Source: a virus. Taken from it: a stretch of 38,088 bases of DNA. Position 1 is the first letter of the stretch, and the number at the start of each line of letters is the position of its first letter. Location: UHGV virus genome UHGV-0049967; one strand, 5' to 3'. The notes below the pieces were generated by a model. The model did not search any database. It was not told the origin of the DNA and was given only the letters and a program-made list of their open reading frames with translations. Shown here one piece after another: positions 29,915 through 35,133 of this stretch. A program made the translations under genes and the position numbers.

Positions 29915-31267
<1,353 letters not shown>

Positions 31268-31658: not shown

Positions 31659-31991
31659 ATGGATGCACAAACACGCCGCCGCGAACGTCGCGCAGAGAAA
31701 CAGGCTCAATGGAAAGCAGCAAATCCCATGTTGGTTGGGGTAAGCGCAAAACCAGTTAACCGCCCTATTCTCTCGCTGAATCGCAAACCGAAATCACGAG
31801 TAGAAAGCGCACTGAATCCGATAGACCTTACGGTGCTGGCTGAATACCACGAACAGATTGAAAACAACCTGCAACGTATTGAGCGCAAGAATCAGCGCAC
31901 ATGGTACAGCAAGCCACGCAGTGAAATGGGCGTAACCTGCTCAGGCCGCCAGAAACAACGCGGAAAATCAATTCCAGCTTATTACGATTGA
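31659..31991 (+). CDS. N: Antitermination protein N (lambda type)
   Basis: MDAQTRRRERRAEKQAQWKAANPMLVGVSAKPVNRPILSLNRKPKSRVESALNPIDLTVLAEYHEQIENNLQRIERKNQRTWYSKP... essentially lambda N, including the Arg-rich boxB-binding motif. Confidence 0.95.
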   Translation: MDAQTRRRERRAEKQAQWKAANPMLVGVSAKPVNRPILSLNRKPKSRVESALNPIDLTVLAEYHEQIENNLQRIERKNQRTWYSKPRSEMGVTCSGRQKQRGKSIPAYYD

Positions 31992-31996
31992 GGTTA

Positions 31997-32266
31997 ATGA
32001 TGAAGTTCAAATTGAACGATGAAGTTAAATGGTCAAGCTCATCAAACGGTGTAACGAAGGTAAAAATCGGGTTTATCGTCGAGGTGATTCCTCCTGGTGT
32101 CAACGTAAAAAAATTCGAACTAGGCCGTCTGCTAGATGCACCTGGCCTTCCGAGGAAAGAAGAGAGCTATATAGTTTGTGTAGGTCCAAGACCCGGATCT
32201 CGAGCCAAGCCAAAATATTACTGGCCGCGAGTTAATAACCTGCGTCACTTACACGATGACAAATAG
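31997..32266 (+). CDS. Hypothetical immediate-early protein (about 89 aa)
   Basis: GAGG SD before ATG, directly downstream of N and upstream of the terminator cluster. Confidence 0.5.
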   Translation: MMKFKLNDEVKWSSSSNGVTKVKIGFIVEVIPPGVNVKKFELGRLLDAPGLPRKEESYIVCVGPRPGSRAKPKYYWPRVNNLRHLHDDK

Positions 32267-32321
32267 AAGTGAATATCATTGTTTTACTTTTTCGCAGCAA
32301 ACCACTTATTTGAGGTGATAT

Positions 32322-32645
32322 ATGGAAGCATTAGTAGTAGAGCGAAGCGAGGATGGCTACTGGACGCACCCAGAATACGCCAACCTGTTTGGGGATAGAG
32401 AGGTAATTTCAGTTGATGAGTTCAGATCTTTCTGCAAGCAGCATGGCATTGAATCATCAATTGTTGAAATGGAAAACGACAACAATCAAACGGTAATTGA
32501 CGCGTATTTTGAAGATGGGAATCCAAACATCAGTGGATGGGAGCCAAGCATGCCAGATGGAGAAGGATGGTTTGTCGGTTCGATTCACGATACAGAAGAC
32601 GGTCCGATCTGCGTTTGGTTCAGAAATGTAGATAAGGCCGCATAG
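32322..32645 (+). CDS. Strongly acidic hypothetical immediate-early protein (107 aa)
   Basis: By eye about 22 Asp/Glu versus about 6 Lys/Arg; followed directly by an intrinsic terminator. Confidence 0.55.
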   Translation: MEALVVERSEDGYWTHPEYANLFGDREVISVDEFRSFCKQHGIESSIVEMENDNNQTVIDAYFEDGNPNISGWEPSMPDGEGWFVGSIHDTEDGPICVWFRNVDKAA

Positions 32646-32660
32646 TCGGCCTTTATTTTT
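32634..32660 (+). terminator. Rho-independent terminator (tL1-like)
   Basis: AAGGCCG-CATAGT-CGGCCTT hairpin followed by TATTTTT. Confidence 0.7.
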
Positions 32661-32779
32661 GGCACAAACAACAGAATAAACACTGCACTGTGTATTCATT
32701 CCAACGAGTGAATACACGGAGCAATGTCGCTCGTAACTAAACAGGAGCCGACTTGTTCTGATTATTGGAAATCTTCTTT

Positions 32780-32806
32780 GCCCTCCAGTGTGAGGGCCTT
32801 TTTATA
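32780..32806 (+). terminator. Second intrinsic terminator in the early-left leader
   Basis: GCCCTC-CAGTGT-GAGGGC hairpin followed by CTTTTTAT. Confidence 0.6.
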
Positions 32807-32869
32807 TGCATACCAATAACGCTTCACCCGAGGCGTTTTCGTTATGCAATCAAACAGAAGGAGCATCCT

Positions 32870-33040
32870 ATGCAACAGTTCGCTATTGCAGGGGCGGCAT
32901 CGGTTCGCCCTTTCAACCCGATTTTATCGGTACAGCATTCACGAAAAAATATTTTAACCGGAGCAGACTTTAAACAACCAAGAATGAAAAGTTTGCTCGA
33001 AAAACTTTGGGATATTTTGAAACAACAAGGCCGTCCATGA
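32870..33040 (+). CDS. Small hypothetical protein (56 aa)
   Basis: AAGGAG SD 6 nt before ATG; the longer upstream ORF-track extension is considered unlikely. Confidence 0.45.
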   Translation: MQQFAIAGAASVRPFNPILSVQHSRKNILTGADFKQPRMKSLLEKLWDILKQQGRP

Positions 33041-33121
33041 GTTTTACAGATAACTGGTCAGACGAAGAATTCATTCGTCAGATGAACAAAATGCTCAATC
33101 AGCACAAAAAACAGGAGAAAG

Positions 33122-33433
33122 ATGATGATTCTGACTCTGAATGATAAGCGTGAAATATCGCAAATCATCGCAAGTTTTACTGATGAAGATTACGAACGAA
33201 TCAACAGTGAAGTTGATCGCCTCTGCAAACGTTGCGACCCAATAAGCGAAATGCTTCGCTCATATAAACCAGATGAACACACTAAGGACGCTATCGACTG
33301 GCTGGAAGATGATGACTGTGACTATCAGGAAAAAGCCGCTGAATGGTTCTGGGATGCAATAACCGAAAGAGTTAAGGCTGAATATGCCTTCTCAATATTC
33401 AAACGCAGACACATTTTTGGAGAAGCTGCATGA
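33122..33433 (+). CDS. Acidic hypothetical protein (103 aa) translationally coupled to recT
   Basis: ATGA overlap with the recT start; Asp/Glu-rich (WLEDDDCDYQEKAAEWFWD). Confidence 0.55.
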   Translation: MMILTLNDKREISQIIASFTDEDYERINSEVDRLCKRCDPISEMLRSYKPDEHTKDAIDWLEDDDCDYQEKAAEWFWDAITERVKAEYAFSIFKRRHIFGEAA

Positions 33434-34341
33434 GCAATATCGTTGAATTCGTTAAACAGCAGGAGCAGTTATTCTGCGGAGCATTGACTGAACAGACGGT
33501 GACATGGGCTAAGGAAAGCCAGTTTGCAATTCAGTATTTCCAGAAAAATGATTACCTGGCTAAAACGGCACTGGCAAATCCAACCAGCGCACAGAACGCC
33601 ATCATCAATGTTGCGGCGATCGGCATCACCTTAAACCCGGCTAGCAAACTGGCTTATCTGGTTCCGCGCGACGGCATGGTGTGCCTTGATATCAGTTATA
33701 TGGGATTGCTCCATATTGCAATGGAGTCTGGTGTTATCTCATGGGGTCAGGCAAAACTTGTTCATGCTAACGATACCTATGAGTCAAACGGGCTTGATAA
33801 AGCACCAACCCATAAATACAACGCCTTCGGTGATCGTGGTGATATCGTTGGCGTTTACTGCACAGTTAAGACGCCAGCAGGTGATTATCTAACGGAAGAG
33901 ATGAGTCTGGCTGAAATTGAGGCTGTAAGGAAAACAAGCAAGGCGGCATTCAGCGATAAAGGACCATGGGTAAATCACTGGAATGAGATGGCGCGAAAGA
34001 CGGTCGTAAAGCGTGCAAGCAAGTATTGGCCTAAGGCATCACGTCTTGATAGTGCTATTCACGTACTAAACGAAGAAGAAGGTGTGTGGACTGAACCAGT
34101 TATGCCGCACAAATCAGAGGAAGATATCCGCGAAGATGAACGGAAACGCCAGCAGGAAATAATGGATAAAGTACAACTTCTTTGCGATGAAATGGCTCAG
34201 GCAGAAAACATGGATGATTTGAAGCGATATTTTGCAGAAGCATATCGCCTGACATCTGGAATGAAATTGCAGCAGAACGTACAAGCCATTTACATAGAAT
34301 GCAAAGCGAAACTGGAGGTTGCCAGTGAGCAAACTGTATGA
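33430..34341 (+). CDS. recT: RecT-family single-strand annealing protein
   Basis: ...GPWVNHWNEMARKTVVKRASKYWP... corresponds to the conserved RecT motif (GPWVTHWEEMAKKT in E. coli RecT). Confidence 0.85.
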   Translation: MSNIVEFVKQQEQLFCGALTEQTVTWAKESQFAIQYFQKNDYLAKTALANPTSAQNAIINVAAIGITLNPASKLAYLVPRDGMVCLDISYMGLLHIAMESGVISWGQAKLVHANDTYESNGLDKAPTHKYNAFGDRGDIVGVYCTVKTPAGDYLTEEMSLAEIEAVRKTSKAAFSDKGPWVNHWNEMARKTVVKRASKYWPKASRLDSAIHVLNEEEGVWTEPVMPHKSEEDIREDERKRQQEIMDKVQLLCDEMAQAENMDDLKRYFAEAYRLTSGMKLQQNVQAIYIECKAKLEVASEQTV

Positions 34342-34807
34342 AATAGCCAATGAATACGCAAAGCTGATGGATTCAGATTTAGAGCCAGAGATGATTGCTG
34401 ACACAATAGAAGGCATGGAAGGAGAATTTACCGATAAAATAGAGCAACTTCTTTCCGTCATTAAAAATGAATCTGGTTATGCCGAACGCCTCAAGGAAGA
34501 GGCAAAGTCACTGAATGAGCGAGCCGCAGTAATTCAAAATAAGATTGAGAGCATCAAATCATATATAGCGTCATCGCTTGAAATGGTTGGCAAGAAAAAT
34601 ATTCGAGCAGGCATTCACCAGGTAACAATCCGCAAACCGTCAGAAATTGTAGAAATCATCGACTCAAGCGCCCTTCCTCCTGAATACGTTGAGTTCGAAA
34701 CGACAATTAAAGCCGACAAACTGGCAATCAAACACCAACTAAAAGCAGGAATAAATATCCCCGGCGCTCAACTCAAAGTTGGGAAACCTTCACTTCTTAT
34801 CAAATAA
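34325..34807 (+). CDS. Siphovirus Gp157-like protein
   Basis: About 160 aa coiled-coil-rich protein immediately downstream of recT, the usual context of the Gp157 family; start (GTG at 34325, GGAGG SD) is uncertain, with TTG 34319 and ATG 34367 as alternatives. Confidence 0.5.
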   Translation: MSKLYEIANEYAKLMDSDLEPEMIADTIEGMEGEFTDKIEQLLSVIKNESGYAERLKEEAKSLNERAAVIQNKIESIKSYIASSLEMVGKKNIRAGIHQVTIRKPSEIVEIIDSSALPPEYVEFETTIKADKLAIKHQLKAGINIPGAQLKVGKPSLLIK

Positions 34808-34818
34808 CGGTATCGACT

Positions 34819-35133
34819 ATGAAAAAGACTCCATGGGAGAAATGGGAAGTCGATTTCTTGCGCGAAGTGGCGGCGACAATGCCAGTTGAAGTTATCGCTG
34901 AAAAACTGGAAAGGACTGAAAAAGCAGTAATGGCGAAAGCAACAAGGATTGGAGCTGACATTGTTAGCCGACTTCGTGGAAGACGCTGGACAAGAGCCGA
35001 AGTATCACTTTTCGGTAAGTTCTCCGCAGAAGAAATAGCAATTGCAACCTGCCGCTCAATTTATTCAGTAAGAGCTATGCGATACAAGCTAAAAAAACTC
35101 GATGAAGAAAGAGCAGGCATACGAATAAATTAA
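34819..35133 (+). CDS. Hypothetical protein (104 aa)
   Basis: ORF in the early-left operon context. Confidence 0.5.
   Translation: MKKTPWEKWEVDFLREVAATMPVEVIAEKLERTEKAVMAKATRIGADIVSRLRGRRWTRAEVSLFGKFSAEEIAIATCRSIYSVRAMRYKLKKLDEERAGIRIN

Follow-up and report, generated by a model that had tools for sequence, protein, structure and literature searches.

Small acidic proteins in the pL operon of a lambdoid virus genome: an orf184 relative in the N-cIII slot and an overlapping gene pair ahead of the recombination genes

The virus genome UHGV-0049967 (38,088 nt; the whole stretch is here called the window) is that of a lambdoid phage or prophage, and its early-left pL operon encodes three small acidic proteins: orf107, a 35-aa micro open reading frame (micro-ORF) and orf103. 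An earlier note, made from the letters of the sequence, had put the three forward as candidate anti-restriction or anti-defence DNA mimics. We find that orf107 has in effect been described before, as orf184, a published trigger of the gop-beta-cII system of P4-like satellites, and that the micro-ORF and orf103 occupy the position held by gam in lambda, which makes orf103 a candidate, non-homologous inhibitor of host nucleases.

On the + strand, cI (30234-30866) and a 158-aa ORF in the rex position are followed by N (31659-31991), so the pL operon runs rightwards. Downstream of N the order is orf92, orf107, three terminator-like hairpins, cIII, the micro-ORF, orf103, recT, a Sipho_Gp157 gene and a phrog_323 gene:

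31659-31991, +, N antiterminator, gene 1 of the pL operon (Pfam N36, 4.8e-26; phrog_271, 5.4e-26)
31998-32266, +, orf92, about 89 aa, cargo of the N-cIII slot (phrog_11941, 7.2e-46)
32322-32645, +, orf107, acidic alpha/beta protein of the phrog_1372 family (phrog_1372, 1.6e-43)
32634-32663, +, terminator-like hairpin with T-run over the orf107 stop codon (sequence scan)
32780-32807 and 32818-32847, +, two terminator-like hairpins in the conserved cIII leader (sequence scan)
32870-33040, +, cIII, 56 aa (phrog_550, 1e-22; AAGGAG Shine-Dalgarno)
33037-33144, +, micro-ORF, 35 aa, acidic (PHROG match, 2.9e-15)
33122 (likely start 33125)-33433, +, orf103, acidic, all-helical (phrog_3486, 5.9e-59)
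33430-34341, +, RecT single-strand annealing protein (Pfam RecT, 3.3e-32; 59% identical to phi80 Rec)
34319-34807, +, Sipho_Gp157 protein (Pfam, 2.1e-37; phrog_253)
34819-35133, +, orf104 (phrog_323 'D5-like regulator', 2.8e-20)

The three reading frames lie where the earlier note had placed them, and its description of them as acidic is borne out. The isoelectric point (pI) is 4.09 for orf107 (107 aa, net charge -17, 23 D/E against 6 K/R), 4.59 for orf103 (103 aa, net charge -10, 25 D/E against 15 K/R) and 4.51 for the micro-ORF (net charge -5, 10 D/E against 5 K/R). All three are real genes, conserved and each with a PHROG match at the values listed. The statement that orf107 precedes the first terminator after N is right for terminators of the intrinsic type, since the scan for a hairpin plus T-run, to which rho-dependent terminators are invisible, predicts none between N and orf107 and finds its first hairpin at 32634-32663. 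This hairpin travels together with the cargo gene, and the one at 32780-32807 is the counterpart of a terminator annotated in phage mEpX1. Likewise, the proposed coupling to recT is confirmed by the sequence: the cIII stop and the micro-ORF start overlap in an ATGA (33037-33040), the micro-ORF and orf103 overlap by 23 nt, and the orf103 stop and the recT start share a second ATGA (33430-33433), an arrangement that points to translational coupling. Treating the three genes as one group was misleading. The earlier note overlooked cIII, which separates orf107 from the micro-ORF and orf103, and together with the terminators it splits the genes between two independent mosaic modules.

orf107 and the N-cIII slot

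orf107 is 97.2% identical over 107 aa (104/107) to AFM76385.1 of mEp213, with substitutions at positions 28, 31 and 35, and in the supplements of Silas et al. (bioRxiv 10.1101/2023.04.06.535777) a peptide search finds AFM76385.1 listed as UDP0184/orf184. In that study orf184 is located in the accessory region shared with ral; its expression kills ECOR59, Tn5 suppressors of the killing fall in gop and beta, genes of a P4-like satellite, and the killing by orf184 and gop-beta-cII was reconstructed in a lab strain. gop-beta-cII is a toxin-antitoxin-like abortive system of P4 satellites and gives protection from lambda and P1 (PMC9122126). The trigger phenotype, the only one published for orf184, was shown for the mEp213 allele, from which that of the window differs at the three residues named. 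Both genes lie in the N-cIII accessory region and belong to the same PHROG family, whereas their neighbours differ, orf92 being the upstream gene in the window.

The genes between N and cIII are swappable. We compared the 61 loci that carry both N and orf103; although otherwise near-identical, they differ in the length of the N-to-orf103 interval (0.7-2.3 kb) and in its cargo, which is Ral in 19, an acidic 106-aa protein in 12, DUF2528 in 11, Nmad5 in 10 and orf107 in 3. orf92 is likewise found in 3 of the 61. Given this variety of cargo, and that the neighbours of orf107 differ in each of its three loci, orf107 is mobile cargo of the ral slot. The interval between N and cIII (31991-32870 in the window, compared across L021-L100) is hypervariable, with at least 15 alternative genes, Ral, DUF2528 and Nmad5 among them. 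At least six of the alternatives to orf107 are small acidic proteins of pI 4.2-4.4, for example the 106-aa phrog_1273 protein of the 12 loci, and acidity as such is therefore not distinctive among the cargo of this slot. A segment of the 'AAAPELLEALQ' type is common to the 106-aa protein and to an 80-aa ORF between kil and gam in contig L161 (2371-2613, +), which points to another small domain that may move around early-left operons.

Within the orf107 family, pI is below 5 in 50 of the 52 stand-alone representatives, with a median net charge of -16, and the aligned relatives of orf103 lie at pI 4.4-5.1 without exception (34/34). To judge from these relatives, acidity is a trait of both families and not the product of chance. 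The close relatives of orf107 are proteins of about 105 aa from Enterobacterales, with an invariant WTHP segment and a GWFxGSIHDTEDGP hairpin. The family reaches much further, a profile search returning 1009 clusters at E<=1e-3, with relatives in phages of Burkholderia, Pseudomonas, Vibrio, Klebsiella, Yersinia and Erwinia and in the P1-like phage D6. Extra domains stand on either side in about half of the best 150 profile matches. They include a Lar-like restriction-alleviation domain in one relative (38.8 bits; Pfam cutoff 28.6), a Rv2179c-like DEDD-type 3'-5' exonuclease in Stutzerimonas and other Pseudomonadaceae (at most 12 contigs per protein) and DHH/DHHA1; in one protein the orf107 domain itself is tandemly duplicated. 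One relative, P0021 (47% identical, 380 member sequences), is encoded deep in the ea region, where its gene invariably overlaps a metallophosphatase gene at the latter's start (5001-6001 in L004-L009), and the same type of overlap recurs in D6, a context unlike the N-cIII slot.

orf107 has no match in Pfam, NCBIfam or PADLOC (in Pfam at E<=1 there is a single DUF2303 hit at chance level) and is no member of the Ocr, ArdA or KlcA families of Pfam and NCBIfam. In the published AlphaFold2 (AF2) model of ORF184, T15, S87 and H89 form a hydrogen-bond network. A metal or catalytic site made up of the invariant H16, H89, D90 and C97 was considered and rejected, these residues being 8-14 Å apart in the model. 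On both counts the invariant residues look structural. The orf107 protein is one compact alpha/beta domain of strongly acidic character, and the phage family to which it belongs is very large and uncharacterised.

The micro-ORF/orf103 pair ahead of the recombination genes

We examined 88 loci with orf103, and in all of them it lies immediately 5' of recombination genes. The module that follows is RecT with Gp157 in most loci, RecT with a lambda-like Exo in L011, L012, L016 and L017, and ExoVIII with a SEN22 gp31-like gene in L010 and L018. In SEN22 a 94%-identical orf103 stands before a different module without RecT, and the similarity between SEN22 and the window stops exactly at the orf103/recT junction; orf103 is therefore independent of RecT. 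The micro-ORF/orf103/recT junction occurs in 263 of 5426 complete E. coli genomes (about 5%), and the frame of the micro-ORF is intact in 87 of the 88 loci. As far as gene order in these loci can tell, the two overlapping genes, micro-ORF and orf103, are conserved as a pair and invariably stand at the head of the recombination module, irrespective of the type of module.

orf103 matches phrog_3486 and nothing in Pfam, PADLOC or NCBIfam, and a fold search with its model returns generic helical matches, with no specific fold match seen. It probably starts at the second ATG, 33125 (102 aa), which has the better AGGAG spacing and fits both the 102-aa homologues and the RefSeq call. The family, uniformly of about 102 aa, is confined to prophages of Enterobacterales (Escherichia, Salmonella, Enterobacter, Cronobacter, Erwinia, Dryocola); a scan of genome contigs returned five loci. 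In the family alignment A3, Cys35 and Cys66 covary: nearly all members outside a Dryocola-like subgroup keep both, and within the subgroup position 35 is Ala (Ser or Thr in two) and position 66 is Val (Leu in one). Such covariation suggests that the two residues may be in contact or share a ligand.

The micro-ORF has relatives of its own. Its residues 1-16 are identical to the N-terminus of HK97 Gp42.1, its match to phrog_2123, the Gp42.1 family, covers residues 1-20 only (2.1e-10), and it shares FSDEEFI, a form of the motif [WF]SDEEFI, with the N-terminus of P22 Arf (pairwise E 0.005). It has no match to phrog_2445, the PHROG of Arf itself, none in Pfam, PADLOC or NCBIfam, and no similarity to lambda Kil. 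Its location between cIII/kil and the recombination genes is that of Arf and of Gp42.1, the gene of the latter sitting between kil and erf in HK97. Arf and Gp42.1 are acidic peptides at the same position with the same motif; they differ from the micro-ORF in length (47 and 83 aa against 35), and the C-terminal half of the micro-ORF is unrelated. By its shared N-terminus and motif, the micro-ORF appears to be an acidic peptide of the HK97 Gp42.1/Arf type. Because of these two relationships it would belong to the leader region of the recombination module and not to an anti-restriction slot. In E. coli, the 69-aa protein P0061 is a natural in-frame fusion of the N-terminus of the micro-ORF to the C-terminal 40 residues of orf103; as the joint falls at a DDD run present in both genes, it looks like a deletion between short repeats.

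The position of the pair is informative. The order in lambda is cIII-kil-gam-bet-exo, and in phi80 gamL lies directly 5' of a RecT gene whose product is the 59%-identical relative of the RecT of the window. We found 77 viral contigs whose RecT is 87-100% identical to that of the window. Upstream of it lies the micro-ORF/orf103 pair in 75 of these and orf103 without the micro-ORF in one. L161 is the exception: there a lambda-type Gam, 62% identical to that of lambda, precedes a 98%-identical RecT, and Gp157 and orf104 come next. Given the swaps in L161 and phi80, three occupants of this position are known and two of them inhibit RecBCD, and Gam and Gp157 are able to occur together. In common with lambda Gam and phi80 GamL, orf103 is of a size class of about 100 aa, acidic, helical and encoded directly 5' of an annealing-protein gene. 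It differs from them in having no sequence or profile similarity to either (hhalign probability 1.4% for Gam and 0.1% for GamL; no Pfam match) and in always being accompanied by a small upstream partner ORF. P22 Abc1 and Abc2 give an hhalign probability of 0.2% each.

A further observation concerns Chi. Phages without anti-RecBCD genes tend to accumulate Chi sites (PMC12315714). The window 1-38088 has no Chi site (GCTGGTGG) on either strand, 0.45 per strand being expected. In ENT47670 and Midgardsormr38 the order is orf103-RecT-Exo, and neither has a detectable Gam, Abc2 or Gp157, nor a Chi site on either strand. The same paper gives 0/0 Chi for the SEN22 type, which has no known inhibitor, and classes the module of HK140 as RecT plus 'MuGam', its name for the type of the Sipho_Gp157 protein, with orf103 unmentioned.

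Possible functions of the two modules

The broader idea of the earlier note, that these are host-directed genes of the early-left operon, gains from the finding of orf107 in the ral slot and of orf103 in the gam/gamL position, and all three products are plausible host-directed early proteins; the part of the idea that specified DNA mimicry and anti-restriction is unsupported. From position, gene swaps and composition we infer how each may act. Since no intrinsic terminator lies between N and orf107, the latter would be expressed along with N, and its likeliest mode of action is that of a counter-defence or takeover effector which binds a protein of the host or of a defence system. orf103 would most likely neutralise a host nuclease, RecBCD first of all, as its position, the gene swaps and the absence of Chi suggest, and the block would let RecT-driven recombination and rolling-circle replication proceed; it would be a functional analogue of Gam and not a homologue. 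Taken whole, the explanation that orf107 is a swappable cargo effector and that the micro-ORF and orf103 form a cassette in the Gam position strikes us as evenly balanced between right and wrong. That orf103 itself is a non-homologous nuclease inhibitor in the Gam position, a candidacy it owes to the alternation of lambda-type Gam or phi80 GamL 5' of orthologous RecT genes, we put forward tentatively, at somewhat short of an even chance. A bolder proposal, according to which orf103 and the micro-ORF are a third class of RecBCD or host-nuclease inhibitor in the Gam position and, at the same time, the orf107 domain is an acidic effector whose target is guarded by gop-beta-cII, is conceivable but doubtful.

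Several observations weigh against this explanation. Most of the partners fused to the orf107 domain match only PHROGs lacking an assigned function, and the fusions are for that reason uninformative on function; other relatives sit deep in the ea region beside the metallophosphatase gene. Screens that recovered Ocr, Ral and ArdA as host-sensitising genes did not list orf184 among them (bioRxiv 10.1101/2023.04.06.535777 and the follow-up PMC12373910). Because orf184 gave no such phenotype there, a counter-defence role of orf107 stays conjecture. The Gam/RecT junction of L161 is found in 0 of the 5426 complete E. coli genomes, so that the Gam swap is documented by a single viral contig. Gp157, to which PMC12315714 ascribes an anti-RecBCD function, is present in most orf103 loci as well, and the lack of Chi is weak evidence because the chance expectation is only 0.45-0.8 per strand.

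The main rival to a Gam-like nuclease block by orf103, in our estimate an unlikely one, is that orf103, together with the micro-ORF, serves recombination as an accessory factor in the manner of P22 Arf or Abc1 and would aid the annealing protein or the nuclease through loading, handling of SSB or timing. It would account for the strict linkage and the translational coupling to the recombination genes, and for the Arf motif and Gp42.1 N-terminus of the micro-ORF, and it would suit loci in which the anti-RecBCD role may already be that of Gp157. However, a nearly identical orf103 before the RecT-less module of SEN22 makes a specific partner unlikely, and the genes that alternate with orf103 at its position are gam and gamL, not genes of accessory factors. 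It is similarly improbable that the micro-ORF has no protein function and is the remnant of a mosaic junction, in which a Gp42.1-type gene has left its conserved 5' end and translational coupling between cIII and orf103 has preserved it. Only the first 16-21 codons are common to the Gp42.1-type genes of other lambdoid phages, the Shine-Dalgarno is weak, the frame begins in an ATGA overlap with cIII and ends inside orf103, and a natural fusion to orf103 is known in P0061. Against a mere remnant stand the frame kept intact in all but one of the 88 loci and the protein-level motif [ST][DE][DE]xF[IV]RxM..ML, which the micro-ORFs of diverged loci retain despite their sequence differences.

Less probable still is a role outside defence, in which the orf107 domain would serve phage enzymes of DNA metabolism as a general adaptor or targeting module and the stand-alone form would regulate such an enzyme. 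The fusions to a DEDD-type 3'-5' exonuclease and a DHH/DHHA1 phosphoesterase, the overlap with the metallophosphatase gene in P0021-type loci and the protein with a duplicated domain are consistent with it, but unrelated domains without assigned function are the commonest fusion partners, no gene for such an enzyme adjoins orf107 in the window, and the published phenotype of orf184 involves a defence system. Finally, it is very improbable that orf107, perhaps along with the micro-ORF and orf103, is an Ocr/ArdA-like DNA mimic that blocks Type I restriction-modification straight after infection: the conserved acidity, the place 5' of the first intrinsic terminator, the slot shared with ral and the single fusion to a Lar-like domain speak for it, yet orf107 is without a match in Pfam, PADLOC or NCBIfam, orf184 does not sensitise hosts in a screen that recovers Ocr, Ral and ArdA and has its suppressors only in gop and beta and not at the Ocr/ArdA suppressor loci (ECOR22, ECOR55), and the fully conserved residues form a structural network with no regular acidic array.

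orf107 is most probably not a DNA mimic of the Ocr/ArdA type. It is like Ocr and ArdA in being small, early-expressed and acidic, and unrelated to them in sequence and fold: the AF2 model is a confident one and resembles no solved fold, whether of Ocr, ArdA, Gam or any other protein. The published effect of orf184 is to trigger gop-beta-cII death, and the orf103 model, with its generic helical matches, does not support anti-restriction either. Other loci have Ral in the orf107 slot and a Lar-like domain is fused to one relative of orf107, whereas no counter-restriction phenotype is published for the 97%-identical orf184. In Pfam the three proteins match neither Ral (PF11058) nor Lar (PF14354), and the earlier remark that they resemble none of the known ral, gam and abc-type inhibitors is upheld by Pfam or profile comparison with Ral, Lar, Ocr, ArdA, Gam, GamL, Abc1 and Abc2.

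If orf103 does inhibit RecBCD, it would found a new family beside Gam, GamL, Abc2, MuGam and T7 gp5.9. It would explain SEN22, ENT47670 and Midgardsormr38, which have neither a detectable anti-RecBCD gene nor Chi, and complete, at this point, the recent scheme by which lambdoid recombination modules are classified; orf103 could also be a compact tool for RecT recombineering. For orf107, the value lies in tying an anonymous ORF of the window to a protein with a published phenotype, in a family that spans about 1000 clusters from Proteobacterial phages; the native target of orf107 would account for the sensing of infection by gop-beta-cII. Small acidic host-directed proteins are expected in these slots, and neither finding is surprising in kind.

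Neighbouring genes and minor features

Some features of the surrounding sequence deserve mention. The rex-position ORF (30791-31267, +), directly 3' of cI, matches phrog_2651 (8e-59), has an N-terminal hydrophobic, signal-like segment and no match in PADLOC or NCBIfam; it could be an exclusion or envelope protein expressed from the prophage. orf92, which like orf107 lies upstream of the first intrinsic terminator, encodes a basic protein (pI 10) and starts at ATG 31998 or 32001, with GAGG just 5'. A mechanically called ORF of 91 aa (32765-33040) is an over-extended cIII, and the RefSeq entry of mEpX1 annotates the identical over-long call as cIII. No Rfam family is found at the gathering threshold across the whole window 1-38088. 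Between the orf107 terminator and the cIII leader lies a perfect 10-bp inverted repeat (32690-32717, +; GTGTATTCAT TCCAACGA GTGAATACAC) without a T-run.

Downstream of recT, the true start of the Gp157 gene is probably a few codons 3' of 34319, the RefSeq homologue being 160 aa long. orf104 has no direct BLASTP similarity to P22 Abc1; the two match the same phrog_323 (2.1e-23 for Abc1), and orf104, like abc1, is located after the recombinase gene. Abc1 is a trigger of P4-dependent cell death in the study of Silas et al. (bioRxiv 10.1101/2023.04.06.535777).

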